Shown: piece by piece, positions 2 through 41,728 of the stretch
Numbering within the stretch: position 1 is the stretch's first letter
Layout of the letters: every line of letters starts with the position of its first letter
NCBI GenBank assembly: GCA_021845865.1
Contig: JAJZVC010000009.1
Span: 8,218 to 72,217, forward strand
Direction of reading: 5' to 3'
DNA: 64,000 nt
From: Pseudomonadota bacterium
Lineage (GTDB): Bacteria > Pseudomonadota > Gammaproteobacteria > Burkholderiales > UBA9220
Program-made: the position numbers and the translations under genes
Notes under the pieces: generated by a model
What the model saw: only the letters and a program-made list of their open reading frames with translations
Told to the model about the DNA's origin: nothing
Database searches by the model: none

Positions 2-613
2 TGGCAGTTGGCCCTGGGGTCGCTGCCGCGCCATTTCCGCCGCGCCCTGGGCGATTTTCCGTCCCATGGCGGTTATTTGCGCGCCGACCCGGCCAGGGCC
101 GCCGCCTGGGGAGAACGGCTGGGAAAGGCGGGAAAACTGCGCGTGGGCCTGAACTGGGCGGGCAACCCGGCATTCCGCCACGACCGCTGGCGCTCGGCCA
201 GCCTGGCGGACTTCGCGCCCTTGGGCGGCGTTCCTCATGTGGAGTGGTTCAACCTGCATCAGGGCGTGCGCAAGAGCGAATTGGCAATCGCGCCATTCCC
301 CCTCCACGACTACGCCGGCGAGTGGCGTGATTTGGATGACACCGCGGCGTTCATGGCGAATCTGGACCTGGTGATTTCCACCTGCACCGTGATTCCCCAC
401 CTGGCGGGGGCCCTTGGGAAACCGGCATGGGTTCTGGTCCATGGTCTGCCTTATTGGGCCTGGGGAGGCGAGGGGAAAGCCACGCCCTGGTACCCTTCTG
501 TCAGGGTGTTTCGTCAGCGGGGTTGGGGGGACTGGCCGGCGGTGATGGCGGAAGTGGCCGCTGCCCTGGGAGAGTTGGCCGTGGGGGGGGCGGAACTGGC
601 TCCTAAGGCATGA
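2..613 (+). CDS. 3'-terminal part of a glycosyltransferase family 9 (heptosyltransferase-like) domain protein; the 5' end lies outside the window
   Basis: Open frame from the window edge to the stop at 611-613. The translation (LNWAGNPAFRHDRWRS...DLVISTCTVIPHLAGALGKPAWVLV...PWYPSVRVFRQ) is colinear with the C-terminal half of the TPR-GT9 protein at 23130-24599 (LRWAGNPDNTQDRGRS...DLVISVDTAVLHLAGALGRPVWGLL...PWYPSARLFRQ). Confidence 0.6.
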   Translation, partial: WQLALGSLPRHFRRALGDFPSHGGYLRADPARAAAWGERLGKAGKLRVGLNWAGNPAFRHDRWRSASLADFAPLGGVPHVEWFNLHQGVRKSELAIAPFPLHDYAGEWRDLDDTAAFMANLDLVISTCTVIPHLAGALGKPAWVLVHGLPYWAWGGEGKATPWYPSVRVFRQRGWGDWPAVMAEVAAALGELAVGGAELAPKA

Positions 614-1727
614 AGAGTTTCAGGGCCTCCGAGACCTGGTCTACGTGTTCCAGAGGCATGGCAGGGTAGAGGGGTAAGGACAGGGTTTCTTCGCCCATCT
701 GCTCTGCTGACGGAAAACGTCCCTTCGGATAAGCGAGCGTGGTCTGAAAATGGCTGAGCAGATGGATGGCACGGTAATTCACAGTGGTTCCGATGCCCAG
801 GGACTGGAGATGGGCCACAAGGCTGTCGCGGTGTTCCGGGCTGACCCGGATGGGGAAGAGGTGGCGGGCATGCCGGCTATTGGGGCGTGTGGCGGGAAGG
901 GTGATACCAGGAATACCAGCCAATTGCTTACGATAACGCTCAGCGAGTTTTTCCCGCTTTGTCCGATTGATTTCCAGCCGTTGCATCTGGGGCAGGAGCA
1001 TGGCGGCCTGGATGTTGTCCATGTTGTATTTCCATCCAAGCATGGTCATGTCCCAGTGTTGATAGCCTTCCCGGTAACGATCGGAGGCGGTCTTGGTCAT
1101 GCCGTGCAGGCGAAGCTTCTTGAGGGTTTCGTGCAGGGCGCTGTCCCGGTACGCTAAAGCGCCGCCTTCCCCACAGGTCATGTTCTTGGTGGCGAAGAAG
1201 GAAAAGCAGGCGGCGTCGCCGAGTTGTCCCGGCTTCACGCCATCCCGTTCGCCTTCTATACAGTGAGCCGCATCCTCGATGAGCGCCAGGCCATGGCGGT
1301 CAGCGATGGCTCGCAGACGGCGCATGTCGCACATCAGGCCATAGAGGTGCACTGCCAGGATGGCGCGGGTGCGGGGCGTGATGGCGGCCTCAACCTGTTC
1401 GGCATCCAAGTTGCCGCTGTCCGGTTCCACGTCCACGAACACGGGGCGCGCGCCGGCTTCCTGAATGGCGGCTGCCGTGGCGATGAACGTCATGGGAGTG
1501 GTGATGACCTCGTCGCCGGGACCGATTCCCAATGCCAGCAGCACCATGTGCAGCGCCCCGGTGCAACTGGTTGTGCCCAGGGCATGAGGAACCCCCAGAT
1601 AGGCGGCGAATTCGTTCTCAAAGCGGGCCACCCATTCCCCGGTGGTCAGGATCGGGCTTTTGAATACTTCGGCAATGTTGGCAAGCTCGGCCTCGCCCAG
1701 GTCGTGCATGAAGAAAGGAACACGCAT
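603..1727 (-). CDS. DegT/DnrJ/EryC1/StrS-family PLP-dependent sugar aminotransferase
   Basis: ORF 603-1958 trimmed to ATG 1727-1725 (MRVPFFMHDLGEAEL...), which overlaps the stop of the upstream dehydratase by 1 nt (TGATG). Family hallmarks are GTTSCTGALHMVLLALGIGPGDEVITTPMTF and the PLP-lysine region SFFATKNMTCGEGGA. Confidence 0.85.
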   Translation of the reverse strand: MRVPFFMHDLGEAELANIAEVFKSPILTTGEWVARFENEFAAYLGVPHALGTTSCTGALHMVLLALGIGPGDEVITTPMTFIATAAAIQEAGARPVFVDVEPDSGNLDAEQVEAAITPRTRAILAVHLYGLMCDMRRLRAIADRHGLALIEDAAHCIEGERDGVKPGQLGDAACFSFFATKNMTCGEGGALAYRDSALHETLKKLRLHGMTKTASDRYREGYQHWDMTMLGWKYNMDNIQAAMLLPQMQRLEINRTKREKLAERYRKQLAGIPGITLPATRPNSRHARHLFPIRVSPEHRDSLVAHLQSLGIGTTVNYRAIHLLSHFQTTLAYPKGRFPSAEQMGEETLSLPLYPAMPLEHVDQVSEALKLFMP

Positions 1728-2755
1728 CAGTGCATTTCCCGCTTGCCCGAGGCGGTGATGATGGGGATGTGGCGCATCCAGCGCTGGTTTTCCCACCAAT
1801 CCGGGTTGTCGCGGTACCAGGCCACGGTTTTCGCCAGGCCATCGGCGAATGACGTTGCTGGCGTCCAATCCAGCAGGGCCGCGGCCTTGCTGGAATCCGC
1901 CGTGTGGCGGAAAACCTGGCCGGGGCGTTCGCCCACGGTCTGGATTTCGCTTTGGCAATGGGGGATGAGTTCCCGTATGGCGTGAGCGATTTCCAAAACG
2001 CTCATGTCCACGCCGCTGCCCAGGTTGATGACTTCGCCGCAGTATTTATCAATATCGCCGTGCAGCAGGCGGTCCAGCGCCTCGCAATGGTCCTGGACGA
2101 AGAGGAAATCCCGCCGGGCGGAGCCGTCGCCATGGACGGTAAGCGGCTCGCCGAGCAGGCAACTGGTGATGAAGCGAGGGATGACCTTTTCCAGGTGCTG
2201 GCGGGGGCCGTAATTGTTGAACGGCCTCACGATGACGGTCGGTATGCGGTAGGTCTGCCAATAGGAATAGACCAGCCGATCGGCGCCGCATTTCGCGGCG
2301 GCGTAGGGACTCATGGGATTCAGGGGGTGGCTCTCGTCCATGACGGGGGAAAGGGCGGAGCCGTACACCTCGGAGGTGGAGATGTGAATGAACAGCTGGA
2401 TGCGGTCCCGGTAGCGCAGCACGGAATTGGCGACCACCTGGGTGCCGAGGACATCGGTTTCGACGAACTGCCGGTTGTCGAAAATGGAACGGGTGACGTG
2501 GGATTCCGCCGCGAAGTGGACCACCATGTCGCTGCGGCTCACCAGCGAATCGACAATATCCGCATTGAGCACGTTGCCGTGCCAGAACTCGAAACGATTC
2601 GAGTCGAAGCCGCCTTCCGGAAGATTATGCACGCTGCCGGCATAGGTGAGGGCGTCAAGGACGATCAGCCGGTAATCGGGATATTTATCGTACAGGTGAT
2701 GAACGAAGTTGCTGCCAATGAATCCGGCGCCTCCGGTAATCAAGACGGTCTTCAC
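1727..2755 (-). CDS. NDP-hexose 4,6-dehydratase (RmlB-like extended SDR)
   Basis: 342-aa ORF with MKTVLITGGAGFIGSNF, HFAAESHVTRSI, STSEVYG, SPYAAAKCGADRL (YxxxK) and NNYGPRQHLEKVIP. The nucleotide carrier cannot be determined from sequence. Confidence 0.85.
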   Translation of the reverse strand: MKTVLITGGAGFIGSNFVHHLYDKYPDYRLIVLDALTYAGSVHNLPEGGFDSNRFEFWHGNVLNADIVDSLVSRSDMVVHFAAESHVTRSIFDNRQFVETDVLGTQVVANSVLRYRDRIQLFIHISTSEVYGSALSPVMDESHPLNPMSPYAAAKCGADRLVYSYWQTYRIPTVIVRPFNNYGPRQHLEKVIPRFITSCLLGEPLTVHGDGSARRDFLFVQDHCEALDRLLHGDIDKYCGEVINLGSGVDMSVLEIAHAIRELIPHCQSEIQTVGERPGQVFRHTADSSKAAALLDWTPATSFADGLAKTVAWYRDNPDWWENQRWMRHIPIITASGKREMH

Positions 2756-3462
2756 GCCCTTCCTTCCAGGATCGAAATGCTTGCGGGACCCATGTTCAGT
2801 ACCAGGTCGAGGGCCGACAGATAGGGCATGAAATCACCGTGCAGTTGCGGGTAAACAGGGTGGACATAGTCCTGCCATTCTAGCTTTACCCCCGCCTGGG
2901 CGAAAAGACCGGCATCCAGGTAATTGCGCGCCGCATCGCCGGTGAGATAGCAATCGGCCCCGAAATGGCGGCAGATGTTCAATAAGCGTTCGCTTTTATC
3001 CCCGGAGATACCCAGTTGCGACGAGCGCACGAGGGTGCGGCGCAGCCCCAGCCATTCGCACATCAGGGCCACAACCGCGATATCGAGGTCAACCAGCCGT
3101 TGCCAGGGTTGGTTCAAGAGCGCTTCCAGCGGTGGCAGATAGCGGTCGAGATAGGGGGATTTGGCGTAATTCTGGGCGATGGCGGCAATGTGCTTGCGCG
3201 CCCAGGGATGGGACGTGACGATTTCGGTATCCGCGATCCGTTGACCCTGGCAGCCGCTCGTTTTGACCGGGACGGTGAGCCAGAGTGGCCCCGTGGGGGA
3301 TTTGATGCGGTTCCGGTTGCGCCAGCCATGCTTGTCGAACTGGACATCATCGTAATAGACGAAGATGTCGCTGCGACGCATTTGGTCGAAGAAGCCCAGC
3401 CAGGGAAGATAGCCGGGCTGGAGAATGACCAGTCTAATGCTGGATGGGGACGTCTTTGACAA
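2752..3462 (-). CDS. WbqC-like family protein (copy 1)
   Basis: ORF 2752-3846 trimmed because its upstream part overlaps the acetyltransferase gene. TTG 3462-3460 lies 2 nt after that gene's stop. LVILQPGYLPWLGFFDQM...DDVQFDKHGWRNRNRIK...WLTVPV matches the paralog at 14857-15579. The start codon is uncertain. Confidence 0.7.
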   Translation of the reverse strand: MSKTSPSSIRLVILQPGYLPWLGFFDQMRRSDIFVYYDDVQFDKHGWRNRNRIKSPTGPLWLTVPVKTSGCQGQRIADTEIVTSHPWARKHIAAIAQNYAKSPYLDRYLPPLEALLNQPWQRLVDLDIAVVALMCEWLGLRRTLVRSSQLGISGDKSERLLNICRHFGADCYLTGDAARNYLDAGLFAQAGVKLEWQDYVHPVYPQLHGDFMPYLSALDLVLNMGPASISILEGRA

Positions 3463-3464
3463 GA

Positions 3465-4157
3465 TTACTTTACTGTTGCAGCGGATGTTTTGCGTGCTTC
3501 CGAGGAATGTTCTCGAAAGAATAATTCCCACGGCTGCCGGTCGGTTATCTTCTGAGGCTGGCAGTCTTGCCGCACGTAGTGGGTTGGCGGGATGTCTTTT
3601 ACAACGATGCTTCCCATGGCCACGATGCTCCAGTCGCCTACAGTAATGTCTGAACGAATGGCTGTATTTATGCCGAACATGCAACCGGCGCCTATGCGCG
3701 TATACCCGCCGACACTGACGCCTGGCGCAAAGAAGCAGGTGGCGCCGACAATACAGTCGTGGCTGATGGAGACGCCACTCCACAGAAGCGTTCCTTTGCC
3801 CAAGGAGACGTTCGGGCCGATGAAGGAGTGCGCGTTCACAAAGCAATTTCCAGCGATGGTGGCGGTTTTGGATATGGCTGCCTGCGGATGGTAAACATTA
3901 GCCAGGTTGAATCCATGGCTTGTAATTATCTCCATCCATTTTGCACGGGTCGTCGGTGTGCCGACGGCAACGAAGAACTCCGCTGAAGGCATGTCCTTGA
4001 ATGCCGCGAAGGGGCCAAGGACGGGGTGTCCCGATACCGATTGGCCAGCCAGTTCTCGCCGGTCATCGAGAAATGCCACTTCATATCCCGAAAGGGAAGC
4101 GGCTTCGGCTACTTCCCTGCCTAGGCTTTCCGCACCAAGAATTATCAGTTTTGTCAT
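3465..4157 (-). CDS. NeuD/PglD-type left-handed beta-helix sugar acetyltransferase (copy 1)
   Basis: 230-aa ORF with an N-terminal KLIILGAESLGREV Rossmann-like part and hexapeptide repeats (GKGTLLWSGVSISHDCIVGATCFFAPGVSVGGYTRIGAGCMFGINTAI). Confidence 0.8.
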   Translation of the reverse strand: MTKLIILGAESLGREVAEAASLSGYEVAFLDDRRELAGQSVSGHPVLGPFAAFKDMPSAEFFVAVGTPTTRAKWMEIITSHGFNLANVYHPQAAISKTATIAGNCFVNAHSFIGPNVSLGKGTLLWSGVSISHDCIVGATCFFAPGVSVGGYTRIGAGCMFGINTAIRSDITVGDWSIVAMGSIVVKDIPPTHYVRQDCQPQKITDRQPWELFFREHSSEARKTSAATVK

Positions 4158-4174
4158 AGTCAGGACAGGGTACG

Positions 4175-5878
4175 TTACTCTTTGGTCAGGAGAATGTTGT
4201 CAATGGCGAGGACATCCAAGCCGCTGGTTACGAATGTTCTCAAAGCGTCTTCAGGAGAATTGACTATCGGTTCGCCATTGGTGTTAAAAGAGGTGTTAAT
4301 GAGGATTGGTGTGCCCGTATTTTCTTGAAATTTCATCAGTAATTCGTATAGCAAAGGTTCCCGCTCTTCCATAATGGTTTGGAGGCGGCCAGTCCCATCG
4401 GCATGAACGGCGCCGGGCGCTTTTTGGGCGGCGTTGGCGTGGAAGTGAAAGGCTTTTTCCATGAACAGTACCGGATCCGTATCCTGGGTTTGAAAGTAAC
4501 GTCCTACGGAACTGTAAGGAAGCATGGGCGCAAAAGGTCGAAATCCCTCGCGGTATTTAATGCTGGCGTTAAGTCTGTCCTTGATCTCCGCCTTGAGGGG
4601 ATTGGCAAGAATGGAGCGATGCCCGAGCGCACGCTGGCCAAATTCGGCTCGGCCTTGGAACCAACCCACAACGAACCCAGCAGCGATCAAGTCTGCTACG
4701 TCGGAGGCAATGTTGCCGCTTATCCGATGCTTCAAGCGATACTTTTCAATGATATCGCCAATTTCAGATTGTTCGAAGGCTGGCCCTACTGCCGGGACGA
4801 TGGAATTTGTTTCGATCTTTATGTTTCTTCTGATCGAGGCGTCAAGCGCGGCGCCAATAGCATTGCCACTATCGTCAGGGGCAAAACCTATGTAGGAACG
4901 CGAGAATGGCGTACGCGAGGTAATGGCGCCATTGAAGAGGCAATTCATGGCCACGCCACCGGCAAAGCACAGATGGGTGGAGTCAGTCAGCCGATGCGCT
5001 CGGGTAAGTAACCGGATAAGGGTGGTTTCCAGGAGTTGCTGCATGGCAGCAGCGAGGTCGAAATGGCATGGCAATAGAGGATCATCTGGCGATCTTGGCT
5101 TTCCCAGTAGGTCAACCAAGTGTTTTCCATACATTTCTGGACGGTCAAAATTGTAGAAATCGAAGAATTTGAGGTTGACCTCGTAGCGGCCATCGTCTTC
5201 CAGTTGGATCAGTTTCTTAATTTGGGGGGCGTTGGCGGGGTTGCCATAAGCGGCCATTCCCATAATTTTCCATTCATCCGAGAAGGGGCGGAAACCGAGG
5301 AACTGAGTGATGGCCGCATAGACGCACCCGATGGAGTTAGGAAATACCTCCGATTCCAGCAAGGTAAGTTCCCCCCCTTTGCCATGGAAAATAGAGGTCG
5401 TTTTTTGCTCACTCCAGCCATCTACGATGACGACCGCTGAATCCTCGAATCCCGAGGCATGAAATGCCAGGCGTGCATGCGCCAGGTGGTGGTCAACATA
5501 CTCAATGACCACCTGGCGGCCGTTGCTGGCGGTAAATTTCTGCTCTGTCAGATGGGGGAGCAGCAGGCCAGGAAGCAGATGGTTGGGAACGGACGTCAGC
5601 CATTCGCCGGGATATCTCATCCAGTCCGAGAAACCGGGGCGATACTTGAGGGCAATGTTTTCACCGGGATTCCACGCAATGGAAAAACAATCCACGCGGT
5701 CCATGCCTATTTTTGCCACGTCAAGGCAGTAGCTTAGAGCCTGATGGGGAAAAGAACGGTCATGCTTGATGCGGCTGAAGCGCTCTTCAGGCACGGCGGC
5801 AATCAGTTGACCATCGTGCATGAGGGCCGCGGAACTGATCGGCCCTGACATATGGATTCCTAGGACGTAGGTTGACAA
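4175..5878 (-). CDS. NodU/CmcH-family carbamoyltransferase
   Basis: 567-aa ORF. The N-terminus MSTYVLGIHMSGPISSAALMHDGQLIAAVPEERFSRIKHD and the overall length are typical of this family. The gene is visibly AT-richer than its neighbours. Confidence 0.85.
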   Translation of the reverse strand: MSTYVLGIHMSGPISSAALMHDGQLIAAVPEERFSRIKHDRSFPHQALSYCLDVAKIGMDRVDCFSIAWNPGENIALKYRPGFSDWMRYPGEWLTSVPNHLLPGLLLPHLTEQKFTASNGRQVVIEYVDHHLAHARLAFHASGFEDSAVVIVDGWSEQKTTSIFHGKGGELTLLESEVFPNSIGCVYAAITQFLGFRPFSDEWKIMGMAAYGNPANAPQIKKLIQLEDDGRYEVNLKFFDFYNFDRPEMYGKHLVDLLGKPRSPDDPLLPCHFDLAAAMQQLLETTLIRLLTRAHRLTDSTHLCFAGGVAMNCLFNGAITSRTPFSRSYIGFAPDDSGNAIGAALDASIRRNIKIETNSIVPAVGPAFEQSEIGDIIEKYRLKHRISGNIASDVADLIAAGFVVGWFQGRAEFGQRALGHRSILANPLKAEIKDRLNASIKYREGFRPFAPMLPYSSVGRYFQTQDTDPVLFMEKAFHFHANAAQKAPGAVHADGTGRLQTIMEEREPLLYELLMKFQENTGTPILINTSFNTNGEPIVNSPEDALRTFVTSGLDVLAIDNILLTKE

Positions 5879-5910
5879 TTGAATTTCCCTCTAAGGAGCC
5901 TGTCTCGTCT

Positions 5911-7785
5911 TTATTCCATGATTTTTTCGAGAGGGGCATGGCGTTCCCACCATTTCTGGAACATCAGCAGGTTCCAGAGCCGGGGGCCATGGTTGGCGCG
6001 GCCTTCAACGTGTTCCTCCATCAGTTGCTGGACGGTTTCTGGCCGGAGCAAGCCGTGCAGGGCCAGGCGCTCGGGTGTCAGGGTGGCCTTGAGCGTTGGC
6101 TGAAGCGCGTTTCGCAGCCATCCATCCACCGGCAGCACGAATCCTTCCTTGGGCCGGTTGATGATGTTGTCGGGCAACAGATCGCGCACAGCTTCCTTGA
6201 GAATATGCTTGCTCCGTCCTGTGCGGATTTTCATCGAACCCGGCAGGCGCGCGGCGAACTCCATCAGGCGGTAATCCAGGAAGGGCGGCCTCACCTCCAC
6301 CGAATGGGCCATGGAGAGCCGGTCCACGAAGGCTAGTACCTGATCCGGCAGCAGGGTGGCGAAGTCGCAAGCCAACGCGCGGTTGAGCGGGTCGGGCGTG
6401 GCGCATCCATCATAGATGTGCCGCAGGAGGCTTTCGCTGCTTTCCCCCGCGCAAAGGGCCAGCATCTTGCTGCTCAGCAGGCTCCGCTTGCCTTCGTCCG
6501 TCCACAGCGTGAGGCTGGCGCGGCGCGCGGCTTCGTCGCCGTATTTTAGCAGGGAGCGCAGATAGTCCGGCTGGTCCTGGTAGGGACGCAGCAAGTCCCA
6601 TTCAGCCTCAGTCAGGGTATCCAGTTTTTCGGCCAGGGAGGGGAAGTGGTGCAGGGGCTGCGCCAGGCGATGGGCCAGATAGCTGCCGAACAGTTCGTCC
6701 GCGCCATCGCCGGAAAGGGCGACCTTGACATGCCGGGCAATCAGACTTGTGACGAAATAGGTTGAGGTCACGCCGGAAAAGGGTTCGTCGAAGGCATCAA
6801 CCACCGCGTCGAGATTGTCCACGATATCCTGCGCCGTCAGGACGTGCTCGTGATGGTCGGTGCCGTAAAGACTGGCCACTTGCCGGGCGCAGTCCCGATC
6901 CGCCTGCTTGTGCGGGATGTCGTCCTCATAGACGAGAGAAAAGGTCTGCACGCGCTGGCCGCCAAGACGGCTCATCAGGGCAACGACGCTGGAACTGTCC
7001 AGCCCGCCGGAGAGGTATGCGCCGAAGGGAAAATCGGCGCGCATGCGCAGGCGCACGCTGTCCTCCAGCAGCTCCCGTATCCGTGCGGCCGCCGTGGCGT
7101 CGTCCATTTGCGGGTCTTCGTTGAAACGCAGGGACCACCACGTATCGCGCCGCAAGGCGCCCTGCTCGAAGATAACCCGTTCCCCCGGCCTTAATTGTTC
7201 GATGCCCGCAAAGGCGCTCCAGGGCGAGGGGATGTTCTTGAAGCTGAAGTAATGGTAGAGGGCGCGGTAGTCCGGCGTGCGTGGGGTGTCCGGATGGGCG
7301 AGGAGGGATTTGATCTCCGAGGCAAACAGCAAGCGGCCATTGGCGCGGCAGAAGTACAACGGCTTGATACCAGCGCGGTCCCTCGCCAGGAGCAGTTTCT
7401 TGCGGCGCTCGTCCCAAAGGGCGATGGCGAACATGCCGTTGAGATGATGGAGGAAATCGTCGCCGTGGGCTTCATACAAATGCACCAGGGTTTCGGTGTC
7501 GGAGTGGTGGCTGGAAAAGCGGTGTCCTTCGGTCTCAAGCCGCGCGCGCAGCTCGGGGTGGTTGTAGATTTCGCCATTGAAAATCACGGCGATACTGCCG
7601 TCTTCGTTGAATACCGGCTGCTGGCCGCTTTGGGGGTCGATGATGGCGAGCCGTCGCATGCCGAGGGAGATGCCGGGGCTTTCCCAATAGCCCGCATCAT
7701 CCGGGCCGCGATGGACAACGGCCTGGGTCATTCGCCTCAGGGCGGCGCCATTCGCCGGCCCCGTGAAGCCGCATATGCCGCACAT
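5911..7785 (-). CDS. Asparagine synthetase B-family glutamine-dependent amidotransferase
   Basis: 624-aa ORF starting MCGICGF (Cys2 nucleophile of class II amidotransferases) with the PP-loop YLSGGLDSSSVVALM. Its start overlaps the upstream stop by 1 nt. Confidence 0.9.
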   Translation of the reverse strand: MCGICGFTGPANGAALRRMTQAVVHRGPDDAGYWESPGISLGMRRLAIIDPQSGQQPVFNEDGSIAVIFNGEIYNHPELRARLETEGHRFSSHHSDTETLVHLYEAHGDDFLHHLNGMFAIALWDERRKKLLLARDRAGIKPLYFCRANGRLLFASEIKSLLAHPDTPRTPDYRALYHYFSFKNIPSPWSAFAGIEQLRPGERVIFEQGALRRDTWWSLRFNEDPQMDDATAAARIRELLEDSVRLRMRADFPFGAYLSGGLDSSSVVALMSRLGGQRVQTFSLVYEDDIPHKQADRDCARQVASLYGTDHHEHVLTAQDIVDNLDAVVDAFDEPFSGVTSTYFVTSLIARHVKVALSGDGADELFGSYLAHRLAQPLHHFPSLAEKLDTLTEAEWDLLRPYQDQPDYLRSLLKYGDEAARRASLTLWTDEGKRSLLSSKMLALCAGESSESLLRHIYDGCATPDPLNRALACDFATLLPDQVLAFVDRLSMAHSVEVRPPFLDYRLMEFAARLPGSMKIRTGRSKHILKEAVRDLLPDNIINRPKEGFVLPVDGWLRNALQPTLKATLTPERLALHGLLRPETVQQLMEEHVEGRANHGPRLWNLLMFQKWWERHAPLEKIME

Positions 7786-8840
7786 CAGCCGGATTCCGTC
7801 GCGGATGACTGGAAATCGTCATTTTCCGTCAGGCGCAGCAAGGTTATGGCGCGTTGCGCTTCAGCGTTGTTGACAACTTTCCAATAGTTGTGTTGCCATG
7901 AGCGGTACTGCCAATCCGGGCAGGTGGCGCAAAGGGGCAGGTCGCGTCCCTGGCCCGCTAGGTGCTTTTCCCGGTAGAGGCGAAAGCCCTCCCCATGCCA
8001 GATTTCCGCGATGGACTGATGATTAACGTTACCCATGCTAGTGTTGGCGGCGATATCATAGCCACAGACCATGACGTTGCCCCGGCTGTCGATGTTCAGG
8101 CGCTCGAAGATGAAAGGGCAGGGCACGGCTTCGGTATCGATGTAGGGGGTGGCGTCCGCCGAGCGTTCGGCATCCAGTCGGGTGTTGCTGCCCCAGGTGA
8201 GAAATTTGCGCCCGATGAAATTGTCCACGCCGATCTCCTCGCGCCAGAAGGCTTCCACGGCGTCAATGTCCACGCCCTTCTGGTTGACGCCGGAGGCGAC
8301 GATTTTCGACGGGCTGTTCATCGCGTTGCGCAGGCGGAGCATGCGGCGGACATTGTCCACCAGCTTGTGCCATTTCAGGCCCTTGCGCACCACCGAATAA
8401 GTGGCCTCGTCCCTGGCATCAACGGAAAATTCGATCATGTCCACCCCCGCGCGCAACAGGGCAAGGGTGGTCTTTTCCGTGAACTTGGAGCCGTTGGTGA
8501 TCAAGCCGATGCGGCAGCCCGCTTCCTTGGCGTACACCAATAGTTCTTTCGCCTTGGGATGGAGCATGGGCTCGCCACCCCCGGAGATGCGCAGATAGGC
8601 GCCATGCTGTCCCGCCTCGTCGGCGATTTTCCGGAAAAGCGCTTCCGGCATGAAGGGGGCGTCACGGTAATCATCGCGGATGTTGGACTGCGTATAGGGG
8701 CAGTGGGGGCACTTCGCGTTGCAGGGATAGACGAAGGAAAGTACCAGCATCATGGGAAAACGGGCCGCCTCGGGGCGAAGGCCATAATTCGTCTCCCTGG
8801 AGGTGTCCTGCGCTTCTGCTGGCTGTTTGCTCATGGACAT
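7785..8840 (-). CDS. Radical SAM enzyme with C-terminal SPASM/twitch-like Cys cluster (paralog A)
   Basis: 351-aa ORF with YPCNAKCPHCPY (CxxxCxxC), GGGEPMLHP, and C-terminal VPCPF...GNVMVCGYD...LCATCPDW. Confidence 0.85.
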   Translation of the reverse strand: MSMSKQPAEAQDTSRETNYGLRPEAARFPMMLVLSFVYPCNAKCPHCPYTQSNIRDDYRDAPFMPEALFRKIADEAGQHGAYLRISGGGEPMLHPKAKELLVYAKEAGCRIGLITNGSKFTEKTTLALLRAGVDMIEFSVDARDEATYSVVRKGLKWHKLVDNVRRMLRLRNAMNSPSKIVASGVNQKGVDIDAVEAFWREEIGVDNFIGRKFLTWGSNTRLDAERSADATPYIDTEAVPCPFIFERLNIDSRGNVMVCGYDIAANTSMGNVNHQSIAEIWHGEGFRLYREKHLAGQGRDLPLCATCPDWQYRSWQHNYWKVVNNAEAQRAITLLRLTENDDFQSSATESG

Positions 8841-9832
8841 TCCGCAGTGACGGGTTCGCCCTGGTGATACCAGAAGGGGCGGGTTCCAGGCAATTTTTCC
8901 TCATCGTAGCTGGCTCCGGCAGTTTGCCAGTCCCGGCATCCCTGACAGATGGACGGCAAGGCATTCCAGCGGTGTTCCCGGTGGGGAGTGCGGACAGCCG
9001 CCCCTAGGCGTTGCCAGGCTTCCTTGACGGAGAGCGTGTCACCGATGGCGCCGACGCTGAAGAGTCCTTCGTAATCCACGGCGCAGGTCACGACCTTGCC
9101 ATCCTGGTGGATGGCCATGGTGTTGTTGCCCCAGGGACAGGCGATGCGGAAATCGGAATCGTGGTCAATGTTGGGCGCATGCACCACGCCGCCCCATTCC
9201 AGTTGCGGGCGTACCTTGACCTCGGCACCACGCTCCTGCCAGTGGCGGCGATATTCCTCCACCTCGTGGCCGTTGATGTCCTGAAGCACGGAGAACTGGC
9301 AGATGATGGCGGGGTAGGCCTGTCCCCTCTGGGCTTTCCGGTTCAGCAGATTTTCGACCTGGGCGTAAATCTTTTCCCTCTTTCCCCCTACCCGGACTTT
9401 CTCGTAGGTTTCGGTGCTGAAGCCGTCAATGGAAAGAATGAAGCGCTTGAGTGGGGACTCCAGTACCCGCTCGATGTTGTCCCAGCGATCGAGCAGCATG
9501 GCGTTGGAGTTGAGCACCAGGTTGTTGCAGCCCACCTTGGCGGCGTAGTCGAGCCGGTTCCACAGTTCGTTGTCCTTGGCGAGAATCAGCGCTTCGCCGT
9601 AGAACGTCGGCCAGAGCTCGGTGCCGGGCGACTCGCGCCCCACTTCCTCGACGATCCGGTTCCACAGCTGCCGTTCCATGTGCTTTTTGGGGCGCACCAG
9701 GTTGCGGTGGTTGCAGTGGATGCACTTCTGGTTGCAATAGCTGGTGTTTTCCACCACTAGCTGAGGCGGAAAGGGGTGTTCCACGAGTTGGGACTCAATG
9801 GCAAGAAGTTTGTCTTGATGGGCTCTATCCAT
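8831..9832 (-). CDS. Radical SAM enzyme with C-terminal SPASM/twitch-like Cys cluster (paralog B)
   Basis: 333-aa ORF with SYCNQKCIHCNH and C-terminal IACPW...GKVVTCAVD...ICQGCRDW. It overlaps the downstream paralog by 10 nt. Confidence 0.85.
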   Translation of the reverse strand: MDRAHQDKLLAIESQLVEHPFPPQLVVENTSYCNQKCIHCNHRNLVRPKKHMERQLWNRIVEEVGRESPGTELWPTFYGEALILAKDNELWNRLDYAAKVGCNNLVLNSNAMLLDRWDNIERVLESPLKRFILSIDGFSTETYEKVRVGGKREKIYAQVENLLNRKAQRGQAYPAIICQFSVLQDINGHEVEEYRRHWQERGAEVKVRPQLEWGGVVHAPNIDHDSDFRIACPWGNNTMAIHQDGKVVTCAVDYEGLFSVGAIGDTLSVKEAWQRLGAAVRTPHREHRWNALPSICQGCRDWQTAGASYDEEKLPGTRPFWYHQGEPVTAECP

Positions 9833-11816
9833 GGGGTAGCGCGCTCATTTTGCTAGTGGTGATTTCCTCGATATGGACTAGTAAGGTACGTGCCATTTCT
9901 GCGATGTCCATAACGAATGCCTCAACAAACTCCTGTCCTGCATGGCCTACGGCATCCCTGAAAGGTTTATCGTCAATGAGGCGTAACGCCATCTTCGTGT
10001 ATTCCTGATTATTAGTGGCGCAAAGGAAAAGCGTTTCCCCATTTTCGGCGGTGTATATGTGTTGGGCGCGCTCTCGTTTGTCAGGGGTGCCTACCTGCCC
10101 ATTTAGCAAGGGTAAGATCACCATGGGAACACCGCTTTCCATCGCCTCGGGACTCAGGTGGAATACTGTCGGCTTGCCTGCGGCCATGCACTCGAATACC
10201 GTGATCCCGCCGCCGAAGGGGAAAGTGTCGAGGCAAACATCCAGTACCTGGGCGTAAAGCCGAGTGTCGATCCAGCCCACGAAAAAGCATCGATCCGCTA
10301 CGCCGGCCCTTTCAAAACATTCCTGGATTCGCGGCAAACGGGATTGGCCGCTCCACAGAAAACCTGTATCGGGACGTGCCTGTAGAATATCGGCTACGGC
10401 GTCGAGATATTGAGGGTTGTCCAGTTTTTCCACGCGGCCCATGCAGCCCAGCAGGGTTTTCACTGGAAACTGCTGTCGAATTTTTCTTGCTTGATTGTTC
10501 AGGTCGGCGTCATAAAGATCGCCTACTGCACCATGAACGCACCGCCAGTTGCGGCTGCCGATACGTTTGAATTTTTCCAGGGTGCCGAGGGCGAAATAGC
10601 CGTCGATGTCCTCGAGTTCGACACTGTGGTATTTCATGGACCACCAGATTTGCGCCGGGGCCAAGCGAAGACCGAAGGCAAAGGACATATGTGCGATGTT
10701 GGTTGCCCACAGGATGGCGGCTGTGCCGTCGTTTGCCAAACGTCGCCGCAGTTCCAGCAACAACTGGTAGGCCATGCCGCGCAGGTGGGGACACTCGTCG
10801 CTCAGGGCGACGATGCGGACACCTGTGTCGAGGAAGGAGGAAAGGGCGCGTTGGTCCACATCGCTCAATACATATACCGATACGGCGCGGCTGGTTTGGT
10901 CCATGCTGCGCAGAGCGTCCAAAAGCACCCGGTTTGGCCCGAGGGAATCAAGATGATGGACGACAAAAGCCACGCTGGCGGTATTGGGATTGGCCGGTGA
11001 AGGTGTTGGAGGAAGCCGGTTACGCAGTTGGCGTCCTGCCCCGTTCATGAGGGGGGCGACAGTCCGGTAATGGCGGGCGTAGTGTTCCTCGGTTTCGGTC
11101 TGATGGACATAGCGCAGATCAAGCTGTAATTCGAGCCAAAGGGCGAGATCGAACCATTCCCGTTCCAGAGCTTGTTGCAGCCAGGGGAGGACAAGGGTCT
11201 CCACCGTTGTCCGATTGTCCGTTGCCGGGGTATTGAGGGACAGGCCCACCAAGTCCATGAGGTAGCGGATAGCGGCGTGGGCCGTCGCCTCGTTGGAACT
11301 ATTGGTGATCACGTTCCGGCTGTGGAGCTGTTCGAGCAAGCTGGAGCGGAGAAGGGCGGCCTGCGGTCGGGCATGCAGCAGTTTCAAATAGTTCTCGAAA
11401 TAGACGGAGGGTTCCGTCAGGGCTTGAGGGGCGATGGTGGCCACTTGAGCCAAATTCAGCAACATCTCCCCCGTATCAGCCGCATGCCCTCTCTGCTTCA
11501 GGAAAAGTTTGAACCCTAATTCAAAAGCGGAAATTGCCTCGTTGACGTGCCCTAATCCTGTGAGAACTTGGCCGAGATTGCAACAATAGACGGGGTCTTC
11601 CGGGGAAAACGTTACTGCTTGGACGGCATAAGGCAATGCCTGGCTCGCAAAGCCTAGCCGACTAAGTATGACCGCCTTGAGGTTGAGGGCGGGCGGTGCG
11701 TCTGGTGCTATGGCCAGCAGAGGGTCTAATAGCTCATTGGCTTCGCTGAGTCGTTCCTGACGGAAATATCCCAGGGCACGGTTGAACAGGTCGTTGGCTC
11801 GTTCTTGCGGGTGCAT
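9825..11816 (-). CDS. TPR-repeat protein with GT41/OGT-like C-terminal glycosyltransferase region
   Basis: 663-aa ORF with N-terminal TPR-like repeats (ANDLFNRALGYFRQERLSEANELLDPLLAIAPDAPPALNLKAVILSRLG). The C-terminal DVCLDTFPFGGGITVFECMAAGKPTV resembles DLFLDTLPYNAGTTASDALWAGVPVL of 61847-63829. Confidence 0.65.
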   Translation of the reverse strand: MHPQERANDLFNRALGYFRQERLSEANELLDPLLAIAPDAPPALNLKAVILSRLGFASQALPYAVQAVTFSPEDPVYCCNLGQVLTGLGHVNEAISAFELGFKLFLKQRGHAADTGEMLLNLAQVATIAPQALTEPSVYFENYLKLLHARPQAALLRSSLLEQLHSRNVITNSSNEATAHAAIRYLMDLVGLSLNTPATDNRTTVETLVLPWLQQALEREWFDLALWLELQLDLRYVHQTETEEHYARHYRTVAPLMNGAGRQLRNRLPPTPSPANPNTASVAFVVHHLDSLGPNRVLLDALRSMDQTSRAVSVYVLSDVDQRALSSFLDTGVRIVALSDECPHLRGMAYQLLLELRRRLANDGTAAILWATNIAHMSFAFGLRLAPAQIWWSMKYHSVELEDIDGYFALGTLEKFKRIGSRNWRCVHGAVGDLYDADLNNQARKIRQQFPVKTLLGCMGRVEKLDNPQYLDAVADILQARPDTGFLWSGQSRLPRIQECFERAGVADRCFFVGWIDTRLYAQVLDVCLDTFPFGGGITVFECMAAGKPTVFHLSPEAMESGVPMVILPLLNGQVGTPDKRERAQHIYTAENGETLFLCATNNQEYTKMALRLIDDKPFRDAVGHAGQEFVEAFVMDIAEMARTLLVHIEEITTSKMSALPHG

Positions 11817-11822
11817 GCGGGG

Positions 11823-12761
11823 TTACAGGGGTTTGCGCAGAACAGCGGTGAGTATGAAGGTGCGCAAATCCTCTTCTGGCAGGTCACGGAACTCCTCGCG
11901 GACACGCTGCCGGATGTCAGGTGGAGTAGGGAAGTGGGGGGTGCATTGCCAACTCAGGATTTGGTAACCGCTTTTCTCGAACCATGCGCGCCAGTGGGAA
12001 ACCCGCAGGCCGTTGATCCACAAATCGGGGCGAACCGTGCTGGCGGGACCGTATTCCCCGTCCTCCATGAAAGTCCAGGCGGTGAACTGGTCGGGGTTCT
12101 CGTAATGCCGGTGGTCATCCAGGCCGATTCTGTGCTGGACGATGCCTCCCGGTTTGAGCAGTTTATAGTGCCAGGCCAGCGCGTCTTCCGGTTCGTGGAC
12201 ATGCTCCAGGACGGCATTCGAGAACATGAAGTCGATCTGCCCCTCGGGCAAAAGGGTACGAGCCGCATCCAGGCCCGCATAGGCGAAGCGGGCGGCCTGG
12301 GTGGTGAGCAGGGCGTTCCAGTCGCCTTTTTGCAGGGCGTCAAGGGGGAGCGCATAGGCCCGTTGGCGGATGGCTTCAGGGTGGGTGCCCAGCAGGACGT
12401 AGCGCTCCGGAAAGGCGATGACGTGAAGCAGGAGTTCAAAGCAAGCCTGGGCCGCTTGTTCGGTGTTGTGGAGATGTTCGGAAACATCCACGGCCAAGGC
12501 GGTTTCGGCGCCATTGAGGTAGAGAATCAAGCCATGGGCCAGGGGCTGGAAAGAGCCAGCCCCCATTTCCAGCACAGTACGGGGATGCTCATGAAGCATG
12601 GCCGTCCAGGCGGGGGAAATATCCTGAATAATGCGCGAGGCCCGTTGTGGATTGTAGGACCATTGATCCGGCCAGCGGGTCTCCAGAAGACGGCGGGAGT
12701 GCCATGAGAGGTCGTTGAGTTGCACCCAGTTCAGGTCGGCGAGATCGGGCATAAAGGCCAT
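11823..12761 (-). CDS. Class I SAM-dependent methyltransferase
   Basis: 312-aa ORF with motif I VLEMGAGSF and DFMFSNAVLEHVHEPEDALAWHYKLLKPGGIV. It is the first gene of the minus-strand string. Confidence 0.7.
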   Translation of the reverse strand: MAFMPDLADLNWVQLNDLSWHSRRLLETRWPDQWSYNPQRASRIIQDISPAWTAMLHEHPRTVLEMGAGSFQPLAHGLILYLNGAETALAVDVSEHLHNTEQAAQACFELLLHVIAFPERYVLLGTHPEAIRQRAYALPLDALQKGDWNALLTTQAARFAYAGLDAARTLLPEGQIDFMFSNAVLEHVHEPEDALAWHYKLLKPGGIVQHRIGLDDHRHYENPDQFTAWTFMEDGEYGPASTVRPDLWINGLRVSHWRAWFEKSGYQILSWQCTPHFPTPPDIRQRVREEFRDLPEEDLRTFILTAVLRKPL

Positions 12762-12841
12762 GGAATAGTGACTGATGCCCCATTATATCGTTCAGTCCAT
12801 CGCTATGACCACACGGTGGGATGGTGGTTACCGCCCTCTAG

Positions 12842-12908: not shown

Positions 12909-14867
12909 ATGGAGAGAATGGTGGAGCTATCGCAGGTACTGGCGGCGGGGGTTGCGGCTTACGGTGCAGGCCAATTGGAGGAGGCTGAAGCGGCCAGCGA
13001 GGAATTGATTCGCTCCTTCCCGAATCGGGCGGAGGGATATGAGTTGAAGGGGGTGCTGCGTTTCAAATTGAAGCAGCATGATGAAGCGTTGCAGTATCTT
13101 CAACGCAGTTTGACCCTTAATCCTGATAATGCTGGTGCCTGGAATAATCTGGGTGTGGTTCTGATGGACCTGGAGAAGTGGGGGGAGGCTGGAAATGCTT
13201 TTCTCAAAACCCTGGAGCGAAGTCCGGACCACCTCAGCGCTGCACGCCATCTTGGAGTTGTCCTGGAAAAGCTGGAGCGGCCAGGGGACGCGGCAACGCA
13301 TTATCTTGCCCTGATGCAGCGTTTCGGTCCCCAGGACGATGTGCTGGAGGACTACATTCGTGTCATGGTGGCGCAGGGGCAAGCGGACGCTATCCAGGAC
13401 AGCTTGCCGGAGGGTTTCATTCCTGCCGTTGTGGCGTTGCTGACGGCGCGTTCGTTTTTGGAGCGCGAGGATTGGGAGTCGGCGGAACGATACAGCTTGG
13501 CATCTCTTGCTCTGGTGGGTGGAAAATGGCCAACCCCGGACGTCCATTTGGAGTATTTCCGGGCTATGTATTACATGCTGATCGACGCTTTGCCGCAGAA
13601 GGGCTACGGCAAAGGGGGGGAGGCATGTTTTCGTGAGTGCTATCTCGACGGTATCCGCGCAGCGTTTCATGCCAGCGGGGCGCAACTTCCCCGACCTGGC
13701 CCTTCGACGGTACGGCGTCTGGCTGTGGTTATTCCGGGCTTTATCAATGAGCACTTCGGCCCCACCGTTCTGGCGATGGGGCTTCTCATCCGTTTCATGG
13801 AAAATCTGGGGTGGGAAGCGGTGCTGATCAATTGCGATTACTCGTTTTATAACCAAGCCCTGGCCGGTATCCATGACATCGTGAAACTTCCGGCGGGGCG
13901 CTCGCATTATATCTTTGCCGGTCGTGAGTTAACGGTGTTTACACCGGCAGCGGCAGCATTCCGCGAGCGTTTCGAGGAGGTCGGGCGCTTCCTCACAGAT
14001 TTTGCGCCATCGGTTATTTTTACCGCGGGCACTGAACTCAATCCCTATTCCGACCTGTTGGCCGCGAGTTGGCCAACCCTGGTGGTGCCCATGAATTGGC
14101 GCCCACCTTTCTGCTATGGCCATCTGTACCATGTTCCCTCCGAGGACCCGACCATCGTGGGTGCCTTCCGCCGGGTCTTGCCGCCGCAGGCGGATTTGCT
14201 GCCCTATGAACGCCTGTTTCCCTTTGTCTTGCCGAACCCCGCTACGCTACGGGAACGGGCCGAGTTCGGCTTGGACGGCGGCGATTTTGTTTACCTGCTC
14301 TCGGGTCTGTTGATGGAGGCGGCATATACCCCCGAATATCAGCTTATCCTGGCGGAAATACTCGAACAGGTCGAGCGCGCGCGCTTTCTGATTATCGGCT
14401 CGACGGAAGACGCGTTTCCCTGGAGCGAGCCGCGGCTTGAACGCTGGCGCGGGTCCCGGCTAGTCTTTTCCGCGTATCAGCCAGATTTGCGTTCGGTGTT
14501 GCGTCTCGGGGATGTCTTTCTTCATCCGCCGGCACCGCGCAACGGCGGCACGGTGCGCCTGTGCCTTGCCGAGGGCCTTCCCGTGGTGGTGGAGAAGCGG
14601 AGCGGTTTGAAACTGGTGGTGCCGGATGAGGACATGCTGGACGGGCTGGAGGCATACCGGGATGCGGCGGTCCGCCTCGCCCGTGACCCTGCCTTCCGTG
14701 ACCGTGCCGCAGCCCGTTCCCGGGAACTCGATGCCCGCTTTGAAGCGGAAGCTGCCGAATACATGCAAACCTTGGAGGAGGCCGCCTTCAGGACGGTGGA
14801 GATATTTCAGCGCATCCGCGGTACCCATTTTTTATATTCGGATAAGGGTGTTTTCAGTGGCGGATAA
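12909..14867 (+). CDS. TPR-repeat protein with GT-B-like C-terminal half
   Basis: 652-aa ORF with TPRs (AEGYELKGVLRFKLKQHDEALQYLQRSLTLNPDNAGAWNNLGVVLMDLEKWGEAGNAF). The C-terminus has RFLIIGSTED and LGDVFLHPPAPRNGGTVRLCLAEGLPVVV. Confidence 0.6.
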   Translation: MERMVELSQVLAAGVAAYGAGQLEEAEAASEELIRSFPNRAEGYELKGVLRFKLKQHDEALQYLQRSLTLNPDNAGAWNNLGVVLMDLEKWGEAGNAFLKTLERSPDHLSAARHLGVVLEKLERPGDAATHYLALMQRFGPQDDVLEDYIRVMVAQGQADAIQDSLPEGFIPAVVALLTARSFLEREDWESAERYSLASLALVGGKWPTPDVHLEYFRAMYYMLIDALPQKGYGKGGEACFRECYLDGIRAAFHASGAQLPRPGPSTVRRLAVVIPGFINEHFGPTVLAMGLLIRFMENLGWEAVLINCDYSFYNQALAGIHDIVKLPAGRSHYIFAGRELTVFTPAAAAFRERFEEVGRFLTDFAPSVIFTAGTELNPYSDLLAASWPTLVVPMNWRPPFCYGHLYHVPSEDPTIVGAFRRVLPPQADLLPYERLFPFVLPNPATLRERAEFGLDGGDFVYLLSGLLMEAAYTPEYQLILAEILEQVERARFLIIGSTEDAFPWSEPRLERWRGSRLVFSAYQPDLRSVLRLGDVFLHPPAPRNGGTVRLCLAEGLPVVVEKRSGLKLVVPDEDMLDGLEAYRDAAVRLARDPAFRDRAAARSRELDARFEAEAAEYMQTLEEAAFRTVEIFQRIRGTHFLYSDKGVFSGG

Positions 14868-16207: not shown

Positions 16208-16209
16208 CC

Positions 16210-16872: not shown

Positions 16873-16876
16873 GCCC

Positions 16877-17878: not shown

Positions 17879-17882
17879 TGCC

Positions 17883-18698: not shown

Positions 18699-18705
18699 AG
18701 CGGTT

Positions 18706-23129: not shown

Positions 23130-25599
<2,470 letters not shown>

Positions 25600-25601
25600 A
25601 G

Positions 25602-37940: not shown

Positions 37941-38002
37941 AAGCTGTTTCGAGCTTGCAAAAGCTAGATGGTTATCCCGAAGTTAGGGAAGCGAGGTGGG
38001 TT

Positions 38003-38395: not shown

Positions 38396-38441
38396 TAACC
38401 TTTCTTAGGCTCATGGCGGTTACTAGGTAAAGGAGACAGTC

Positions 38442-40745: not shown

Positions 40746-40815
40746 TTCCACTTTGTTTCTGGCTGCTGTGAGGCTAAACTGAGGCAATTTTGATTGGAAG
40801 CCGGAGTTCGTTTAT

Positions 40816-41611: not shown

Positions 41612-41728
41612 TTCCAAATACCACGCCTCATCCGCCAGCACACTGCAGTCGCCTCAAGGCTGTCAGCAGTTCAATTCTGTTCTCTGCAACACCTTAATTC
41701 ATCCAACGGGCGTTTCAAGGAGGCCGCA

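Follow-up and report, generated by a model that had tools for sequence, protein, structure and literature searches.

Radical S-adenosylmethionine (SAM) enzymes that act on carbohydrates are, to our knowledge, known almost solely from antibiotic pathways (BtrN, DesII, BlsE, AprD4 and NeoN). The best profile relative of the enzymes described here is BtrN, the 2-deoxy-scyllo-inosamine dehydrogenase of the butirosin pathway (PDB 4M7T), which acts on a small amino-carbohydrate and has a DegT-family aminotransferase as its partner. BlsE (cytosylglucuronate radical SAM enzyme; PDB 7VOB) and DesII (TDP-4-amino-4,6-dideoxyglucose deaminase; PDB 8HZV) are sugar-directed as well, and DesII is preceded in its pathway (DesI/DesII) by a 4,6-dehydratase and a DegT aminotransferase. 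The twitch domain has been defined as a truncated SPASM domain with ligands for a single auxiliary cluster; that of BtrN has four Cys ligands and serves a two-electron oxidation, whereas in the redox-neutral MoaA the cluster has three Cys ligands and one site left open (PMC9012708). We analyzed a stretch of 64,000 nucleotides (the window) of contig JAJZVC010000009.1 from a Pseudomonadota bacterium (GCA_021845865.1), in which two adjacent genes, here called rSAM-A and rSAM-B, encode radical SAM enzymes within a minus-strand operon of sugar genes. The partners that matter most are an AsnB-type amidotransferase, a WbqC-family protein, an RmlB-like short-chain dehydrogenase/reductase (SDR) and a DegT-type sugar aminotransferase (Table 1). 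We estimate at around 80% the probability that this cassette makes a modified nucleoside-diphosphate (NDP)-4-amino sugar and that the substrate of both radical SAM enzymes is that intermediate instead of flagellin or a peptide. The functional statements made below rest on sequence, gene context and gene fusions.

Both genes are real and not chance open reading frames (ORFs), as their products score above the Pfam cut-offs for Radical_SAM (PF04055; 62.3 bits for rSAM-A and 39.6 bits for rSAM-B, cut-off 29.5) and for SPASM (46.6 and 27.9 bits, cut-off 21.5). The motif for the SAM-cleaving [4Fe-4S] cluster reads CNAKCPHC in rSAM-A (C40/44/47) and CNQKCIHC in rSAM-B (C33/37/40), and the auxiliary cysteines are arranged as C241-x17-C259-x44-C304-x2-C307 and C232-x17-C250-x45-C296-x2-C299, respectively. 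The CxxxCxxC motif and the C-terminal Cys set had been read in an annotation made earlier from the letters alone (the original prediction), and both are present in both translations. The SAM motif is GGGEP in rSAM-A and YGEA in rSAM-B, with an invariant E90. The two proteins are 26% identical over around 300 residues (E 3e-19) and are, judged by their sequences, ancient paralogues, each with an orthologue family of its own. Their catalytic motifs are complete in both, whether they act one after the other or as a heteromer.

Beyond residue 200 each protein contains exactly four cysteines, and the CX2CX5CX3C block of the full SPASM domain is present in neither. Given that there are just four C-terminal Cys per protein, we class both as twitch enzymes with one predicted auxiliary cluster each and not as seven-Cys SPASM enzymes; of the label 'SPASM/twitch-like' that they had been given, the first half thus falls away. 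A full SPASM maturase identity was rejected on the same Cys count (four, not seven or eight). The full SPASM maturases (anSME, PqqE, sactisynthases, SuiB) do share the Pfam SPASM match, and most characterized enzymes with that match act on peptides or proteins, which, together with the location of the genes in a flagellin island, is what can be said for a role of rSAM-A and rSAM-B as maturases of flagellin or another protein (anSME-like) or of the precursor of a peptide that is synthesized ribosomally and modified after translation (RiPP). However, no peptide substrate gene accompanies them, and considering that only around 30 residues lie ahead of the radical SAM core in either protein, neither has a domain like the RiPP recognition element (RRE). 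Moreover, as shown below, most cassettes lie in loci without flagellin, and both the conserved partners and the fused domains are sugar enzymes. Maturation of a peptide or protein is in our view highly improbable, and the reading was rejected because neither a precursor gene nor an RRE domain is present, the twitch region has four Cys, and the partners and fusions are sugar enzymes.

The absence of a precursor gene follows from the layout of the operon. From 7785 to 11816 consecutive genes overlap without any gap, and therefore no precursor-peptide gene can lie between the two radical SAM genes and the gene upstream of them, which encodes a glycosyltransferase with tetratricopeptide repeats (TPR-GT). 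At the junction of rSAM-B and rSAM-A (...GAATGTCCATGAGC) the former, which ends in TGA, overlaps by 10 nt with the latter, which starts with the ATG at 8840; an alternative in-frame ATG at 8834 would give the classic 4-nt ATGA overlap. The TPR-GT gene and rSAM-B overlap by 8 nt (ATGGATAG), and rSAM-A and AsnB by 1 nt (TGATG). The original prediction had described precisely this arrangement: adjacent ORFs of 351 and 333 amino acids with a 10-nt overlap, coupled to the TPR-GT gene by 8 nt and to AsnB by 1 nt, and no precursor-like ORF beside them.

A comparison with solved structures connects the pair to the twitch enzymes that act on small molecules. By the rSAM-A family profile BtrN is the best solved relative (E 6e-12), followed by BlsE and MoaA, and by the rSAM-B family profile it is the only significant one (E 1.9e-9), in both cases over partial stretches of 65-115 residues. 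C259, C304 and C307 of rSAM-A, three of its four twitch cysteines, align with Cys of the C-terminal (twitch) region of BtrN, and the Asp three residues past C259 (C-x2-D) is aligned too. The Cys spacing of BtrN is presumably C-x17-C-x44-C-x2-C, the same as in rSAM-A. The differences are that rSAM-A and rSAM-B are 80-100 residues longer, and that BtrN belongs to an aminoglycoside pathway whereas here two paralogues, accompanied by AsnB and WbqC, are predicted to serve a pathway for a surface-glycan nucleotide sugar. Single-sequence searches with rSAM-A recovered BlsE (8e-9, the top match), BtrN and DesII (3.8e-5), all of them carbohydrate-directed. An AF2 model of rSAM-A (pLDDT 85.7) has an alternating beta/alpha core and matched radical SAM structures in Foldseek with a probability of 1.00.

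The matches to BlsE and DesII, which both recur in the fold search, bring up a redox-neutral chemistry on the NDP-amino sugar, in which one or both enzymes would dehydrate a 1,2-diol or deaminate by a radical route (as BlsE, AprD4 or DesII do) and the deoxy-keto product would be aminated by DegT. The succession of 4,6-dehydratase, DegT and radical SAM enzyme indeed mirrors that of DesI/DesII, and the cassette DegT scores 192 bits against the DesI model. Nevertheless, the family profiles put BtrN first for both A and B while DesII drops out, the four auxiliary cysteines are invariant in these families whereas DesII is not known to have an auxiliary cluster, and the presence of AsnB is explained no better. 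BlsE and DesII are furthermore enzymes of secondary metabolism that lack a paralogous partner and AsnB, and rSAM-A reaches only 44.7 bits with the NCBIfam BlsE model (cut-off 400). We consider such a redox-neutral reaction unlikely.

The pair fits none of the curated families. The best NCBIfam model gave 84.7 bits for rSAM-A and 62.1 bits for rSAM-B against a cut-off of 380, and among 104 wider relatives none appears to reach a cut-off; the best hit, to the spiro-SPASM model, had an E-value of 1.4e-46, from which a score of around 150 bits was estimated against a cut-off of 250. Assignment to a curated radical SAM subgroup (W-cofactor maturase, spiro-SPASM, BlsE, PqqE, NirJ, MoaA and others) was thus rejected, and the well-characterized subgroup with an unrelated substrate that could have spoken against the original prediction was not encountered in NCBIfam.

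A scan with one genome per species recovered relatives of rSAM-A in 282 genomes; 80 loci were examined. Co-occurrence was scored by BLAST against six-frame ORFs in a set of 83 loci, three of which are redundant, and many of the absences in this set represent contig ends. The 80 loci include representatives of Alphaproteobacteria (Methylocella, Methylocapsa, Magnetospirillum, Dongia, Roseomonas, Asaia), Beta- and Gammaproteobacteria, Nitrospirota, Desulfobacterota-type lineages, Campylobacterales, Planctomycetota, Omnitrophota, Elusimicrobia and Bacillota. rSAM-B and AsnB each accompany rSAM-A in 72/83 loci, the RmlB-like SDR in 68/83, WbqC in 66/83 and DegT in 59/83. The counts are far lower for the TPR-GT (4/83) and flagellin (3/83), and a full-length carbamoyltransferase was found in one locus of the 83 (L029; identifiers beginning with L or P are our own for loci and proteins, respectively). 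Co-occurrence with AsnB and with the carbamoyltransferase had been proposed as a check in the original prediction.

The gene order is conserved as well. In the Pfam-labelled maps the common order is B, A, AsnB, (GNAT), WbqC, SDR, DegT, and the order in the window from 9832 down to 603 is identical to that in Dongia, Rhodocyclaceae, Oleiphilaceae and others. The variable slot is occupied in the window by the PglD-like acyltransferase and the carbamoyltransferase, and in L002, L003 and L085 by a GNAT; the PglD-like gene, which is missing from the gene list of the original prediction, is also part of the operon. rSAM-B lies directly upstream of rSAM-A in 41/80 loci, in 38 of which the two abut or overlap (within around 40 nt). 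In a further 30/80 the genes are apart on the same strand, separated in the loci inspected by AsnB and GNAT, and they were on opposite strands in 0/80. Clustering of the neighbours yielded GNAT clusters in 17 and 16 loci, a formyltransferase in 10, an ArnC-like GT2 (family 2 glycosyltransferase) in 29 and LPG_synthase_TM in 23. Based on the above, rSAM-B, rSAM-A, AsnB, WbqC, the RmlB-like SDR and DegT, together with a variable N-acyltransferase, constitute a portable and strongly conserved cassette.

A B12-binding radical SAM enzyme of around 480 amino acids (e.g. at 13695-15158 of L062) lies near the cassette in 11 loci, mostly of Deltaproteobacteria- or Nitrospirota-type, and may be an accessory for radical C-methylation.

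Homologs of both proteins are numerous. More than 1356 were recovered for rSAM-A (the best 120 listed are 67-99% identical) and 670 for rSAM-B (the best 120 listed, 61-95%), and an exhaustive search gave 149 clusters (at 50% identity) of rSAM-A relatives at E <= 1e-30 and 5960 at E <= 1e-10. The nearest species-level relative, in a metagenome-assembled genome (MAG) of Methylocella, is 77% identical. In the plasmid collection zero relatives were recovered at E <= 1e-40. All eight cysteines are invariant within and between the A and B families (those of rSAM-B were checked in 27 sequences). Among 105 diverse relatives (24-49% identity) the invariant residues are reduced to the 3 + 4 cluster Cys and E90, and the loss of the Cys motifs in orthologs that might have counted against the original prediction is thus not seen.

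The eighth cysteine (C109 in rSAM-A, C102 in rSAM-B) does not belong to the clusters, and its invariance across 60 A-family and B-family sequences is a point in favour of another possibility, namely that one or both enzymes are radical epimerases acting at unactivated sugar carbons (NeoN/HygY-like), in which a protein Cys returns the hydrogen to the opposite face. Two epimerases would account for two paralogues with near-identical cofactor sites, and the radical SAM epimerase EpeE is among the Foldseek matches. Nevertheless, C109 is replaced by Ala in a 63% identical relative that is fused to a GNAT (P0241), it is missing in both halves of P0337, and the position is variable in the 105-sequence family alignment. 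In the model of rSAM-A the residue lies just ahead of strand 110-115, which would place it at the barrel end that points away from the SAM cluster. Given these losses C109 was not taken as catalytic, C109/C102 was rejected as hydrogen donor (the epimerase signature), and epimerization seems to us quite unlikely.

The fused relatives of rSAM-A are more informative on the substrate. They include a GNAT-rSAM protein (63% identical), ArnA-N-like formyltransferase(N+C)-rSAM proteins (54% and 48% identical) and a DegT-rSAM protein (29% identical). Such fusions suggest an amino sugar as substrate and not a peptide, and connect rSAM-A with amino-sugar amination and N-acylation. In one distant relative two twitch enzymes are fused, showing that tandem twitch enzymes can exist as one polypeptide. 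The fusions to GNAT and formyltransferase put rSAM-A chemically beside the acylation step, and one may consider that the pair acts on the N-acyl side chain, or forms a C-C or C-N bond, to yield the carboxylate that AsnB amidates; it might for instance extend the acetyl or formyl group, or join the sugar radical to an acceptor. AsnB indeed requires a carboxylate and a plain 6-deoxy-4-amino sugar has none. However, the conserved genes of the cassette include no acyl carrier, acyl-CoA ligase or other acceptor gene. The type of acyltransferase moreover changes between loci (left-handed beta-helix, GNAT or formyltransferase) while rSAM-A remains 60-77% identical across phyla, an argument against its recognizing one particular acyl group. 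This chemistry is therefore very unlikely in our opinion.

As for the remaining members of the cassette, AsnB has retained the Cys2 glutaminase nucleophile (MCGICG) and is for that reason expected to supply an adenylated carboxylate or carbonyl with ammonia. Among solved structures DegT is nearest to ArnB (5.9e-73), followed by perosamine synthase and QdtB, and it also matches the BtrS-type 2-deoxy-scyllo-inosose aminotransferases at around 1e-42. The SDR is closest to the dTDP-glucose 4,6-dehydratases (8e-73) and scores 326.8 bits with TIGR01181, under the cut-off of 365.1; its catalytic motif is STSEVYG where RmlB has STDEVYG. The WbqC family is described as uncharacterized in the literature. 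A model of the window protein (pLDDT 91.9) matched no solved structure in Foldseek at E <= 1e-3; its weak and non-significant fold resemblances are to nucleotide-binding proteins of the HUP type (cytidylyltransferase, universal stress protein). A second WbqC paralogue, 37% identical to the first, lies at around 14884-15579 on the plus strand, where its neighbours are a DegT and an acyltransferase and not radical SAM enzymes.

The cassette shares several elements with the Arn (4-amino-arabinose) pathway of ArnA, ArnB and ArnC, as is clear from the relationship of DegT to ArnB, the ArnA-N-like formyltransferases found in 10 loci and in the fusions, and the ArnC-like GT2 found in 29. The S-T-S-E motif of the SDR is also that of ArnA-C and UXS. 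Yet the SDR prefers the dTDP-glucose 4,6-dehydratase model over that of ArnA (55.6 bits), and neither radical SAM enzymes nor AsnB or WbqC occur in the Arn pathway. Another lead is the wbq cluster of E. coli O121 and Shigella dysenteriae 7, from which WbqC takes its name and which specifies VioA (a DegT protein), RmlB, WbqC, a formyltransferase-like and an AsnB-like protein; the O-unit contains N-acylated Qui4N and a uronamide. We know of no radical SAM genes in that cluster.

Taken together, these data support the option that the original prediction had put first, a radical step on a nucleotide sugar: AsnB, WbqC, the SDR and DegT accompany rSAM-A in 59-72 of the 83 loci, the fused domains are GNAT, formyltransferase and DegT, and among solved structures BtrN, BlsE and MoaA, twitch enzymes that act on small molecules, are nearest. 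Concerning the chemistry, we tentatively favour BtrN-like radical dehydrogenases acting on the NDP-4-amino sugar, an analogy in which our confidence is limited. The SDR would first oxidize C4 of an NDP-hexose, probably with 6-deoxygenation, after which DegT would add the 4-amino group and the acyltransferase would cap it. Each twitch enzyme would then cleave SAM to the 5'-deoxyadenosyl radical and abstract the carbinol hydrogen from the sugar, and the second electron would pass to the fully Cys-ligated auxiliary cluster, so that C-OH is converted to C=O in a two-electron oxidation like that of BtrN. The two oxidations could take place at two positions and feed DegT for further amination, comparable to the BtrN/BtrS pair, or both could occur on one primary carbon and yield a carboxylate. 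From the carboxylate, or from an activated acyl carbonyl, AsnB would form a carboxamide or amidine. In the window, the carbamoyltransferase and methyltransferases would finally decorate the sugar and the coupled TPR-GT would load it onto flagellin. A dehydrogenase that supplies keto groups for DegT, with an acyl cap added, would explain both the DegT and the acyltransferase fusions, and the logic of dehydrogenase followed by aminotransferase is reflected in the conservation of DegT in the cassette and in its fusion to an rSAM-A relative.

Several observations weigh against this interpretation. The Foldseek ranking is flat, in that SuiB, BtrN, DesII, BlsE, MoaA and EpeE all match the rSAM-A model with E-values of 1e-10 to 1e-12 and TM scores of 0.5-0.6; SuiB heads the list and there is no discriminating nearest neighbour. 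Twitch enzymes with similar domains also dehydrate (BlsE, AprD4) or epimerize (NeoN, HygY), and the resemblance to BtrN consequently does not fix the chemistry. A few long loci contain rSAM-A but not rSAM-B (L018, L028). The origin of the carboxylate or activated carbonyl that AsnB needs is a guess, and every reading leaves the source of the AsnB substrate and the role of WbqC unexplained. That this organism attaches the product to flagellin is deduced from the gene neighbourhood only. Finally, 64/68 cassette SDRs have [T/S]-S-E, with Ser in place of the catalytic Asp of RmlB. In GDP-mannose dehydratase a single Glu is enough for 4,6-dehydration, whereas the dTDP-glucose dehydratases use an Asp-Glu couple (PMC8987622). 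Considering both the replacement of the Asp and this precedent, 6-deoxygenation by the SDR is likely but not certain, and its identity as a plain dTDP-glucose 4,6-dehydratase was not accepted without reserve.

The SDR orthologs (1727-2755 in the window; L004-L083) are in their own right a candidate distinct subfamily, with either single-Glu dehydration like that of GDP-mannose dehydratase or C4 oxidation without dehydration.

By its gene content the window contains a flagellin glycosylation island. The sugar genes run continuously from 603 to 36234, with the cassette as the distal part, and are followed by flagellin (36359-37879) and FliD (38442-40745). The island includes a Pse set (PseB/PseC/PseF/PseI), three TPR-containing glycosyltransferases and many methyltransferases; Wzx, Wzy and polyprenyl-phosphate glycosyltransferase domains were not found among the window ORFs scanned. 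The flagellin glycosyltransferase FlmG, which functions with the pseudaminic acid pathway in Caulobacter, combines TPR and GT-B domains (PMC7591256). The window thus shares TPR-GTs, a Pse set, flagellin and FliD with that system, the likeness to FlmG being one of domain architecture alone. Relatives of the TPR-GT coupled to rSAM-B (30-33% identity over more than 430 amino acids) adjoin the cassette in L015, L020, L021 and L022. Independent cassettes next to flagellin occur in Oleiphilaceae bacterium G1-8 (L084), GCA_030445445.1 (L085), a Sulfurospirillum MAG (L065) and a soil proteobacterial MAG (L063), and MAGs of Rhodospirillaceae and Campylobacterales have TPR-GT and PseI neighbours.

Most of the 80 loci nevertheless look like lipopolysaccharide (LPS) or lipid-carrier type loci, as illustrated by L002, where KdtA, a heptosyltransferase and Wzx are neighbours of the cassette. 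Since most copies occur in such surroundings, we view the cassette as a portable sugar-donor module that is not specific for the flagellum, and the alternative put forward in the original prediction, modification of flagellin itself, is not supported. The product would be passed to differing acceptors: to flagellin via TPR-glycosyltransferases here and in several lineages, and in most genomes into a polyprenyl-phosphate or LPS route via the ArnC-like GT2.

Table 1. Features of the minus-strand operon and its upstream region, with positions in the window.
Feature	Position	Strand	Description
DegT/ArnB/PseC-type sugar aminotransferase	603..1727	minus	~375 aa; core cassette member
RmlB-like extended SDR	1727..2755	minus	342 aa; NDP-hexose C4-oxidizing, probably 4,6-dehydratase
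WbqC-family protein	2752..3441	minus	229 aa; Pfam WbqC (PF08889); orthologs also 229 aa
PglD-like left-handed-beta-helix N-acyltransferase	3465..4157	minus	230 aa; PglD_N + Hexapep
NodU/CmcH-type carbamoyltransferase	4175..5878	minus	567 aa; Carbam_trans_N + Carbam_trans_C (Pfam)
AsnB-type glutamine-dependent amidotransferase	5911..7785	minus	624 aa; Asn_synthase 325 bits, GATase_7 161 bits
rSAM-A	7785..8840	minus	351 aa, ATG start; predicted twitch-domain radical SAM enzyme
rSAM-B	8831..9832	minus	333 aa, ATG start; predicted twitch-domain radical SAM enzyme
TPR + GT-B glycosyltransferase	9825..11816	minus	663 aa; candidate flagellin glycosyltransferase, FlmG-like architecture
SAM-dependent methyltransferase	11823..12761	minus	312 aa; opens the minus-strand operon
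Sigma-70-like promoter match (TGGTCA, 18 nt, TATAAT)	12782..12811	minus	divergent intergenic region 5' of the operon

What was already known comprises the fold, the cofactor set and the existence of carbohydrate-directed twitch enzymes. We regard as new the pair of subfamilies, the obligate way in which it is tied to AsnB and WbqC, its position in the synthesis of nucleotide sugars for LPS and flagellin glycans and its very wide distribution; we found no curated family, solved structure or paper that describes any of these. Nor did we find a paper connecting flagellin glycosylation, or the cassette, with radical SAM enzymes, in line with the earlier statement that such enzymes are not known from the characterized flagellin glycosylation pathways. 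That the pair, with AsnB and WbqC, carries out radical SAM steps toward a never-described monosaccharide, probably bearing amino and amide groups, which in at least eight phyla is put on LPS-type glycolipids or, in several lineages, on flagellin, is a statement to which we would give even odds. If true, radical SAM chemistry would for the first time be assigned to the nucleotide-sugar biosynthesis of a primary bacterial surface glycan, and the WbqC family would gain an initial functional anchor. Working out what the cassette makes would reveal a new sugar, probably formed by a new enzymatic route, and would provide functions for three large 'hypothetical' families (the two twitch families and WbqC). 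Flagellin glycosylation, whose glycan influences filament assembly and the recognition by host and phage, would also gain a radical step. With its six to eight genes the cassette is small; it occurs in hundreds of species and can be moved into a laboratory host.

Some further features of the window and its relatives were noted. The promoter match listed in Table 1 is by itself no evidence of function, as the consensus search gave 2 matches where 4.1 were expected in shuffles. The GC content is 0.53-0.56 at 4001-6000 and 38001-42000, compared to around 0.60-0.63 elsewhere in the window, and the carbamoyltransferase gene lies in the lowest 2-kb bin (0.528). The coincidence of the low-GC stretches with this accessory gene and with the fliD region suggests mosaic acquisition.

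Divergent from the operon lies a second sugar-modification module on the plus strand (12909-20744), which holds a TPR-GT (12909-14867), the second WbqC paralogue, two methyltransferases, a hexapeptide acyltransferase, a PhyH-type dioxygenase (17865-18698), a 331-aa protein without Pfam match (18610-19605) and a second DegT (19500-20744). The gene that follows at 20785-23037 on the minus strand encodes a 750-aa protein with TPR repeats and a SAM methyltransferase domain, which could, by analogy to the TPR-mediated recognition of flagellin by FlmG, be a flagellin-directed methyltransferase. The Pse-type set (24607-30196, plus strand) consists of PseB-like and PseC-like proteins, a cytidylyltransferase and NeuB/PseI, and furthermore contains a 348-aa protein without Pfam match (27454-28500) and a 216-aa protein (28497-29147) with a partial formyltransferase domain where an acetyltransferase is expected. 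Directly upstream of the flagellin gene, at 31471-36234 on the plus strand, a 1587-aa protein is encoded with a methyltransferase (around residues 466-620) and a GT2 domain (around 986-1190), of which the 450 or so N-terminal residues have no domain match. In Oleiphilaceae bacterium G1-8 (L084, 1324-8965) a 1233-aa AsnB-GT1 fusion is encoded between flagellin and the cassette, and the same locus specifies a third protein of the radical SAM/SPASM type (455 aa), which carries a C2185-like_N domain that recurs in two neighbour genes.

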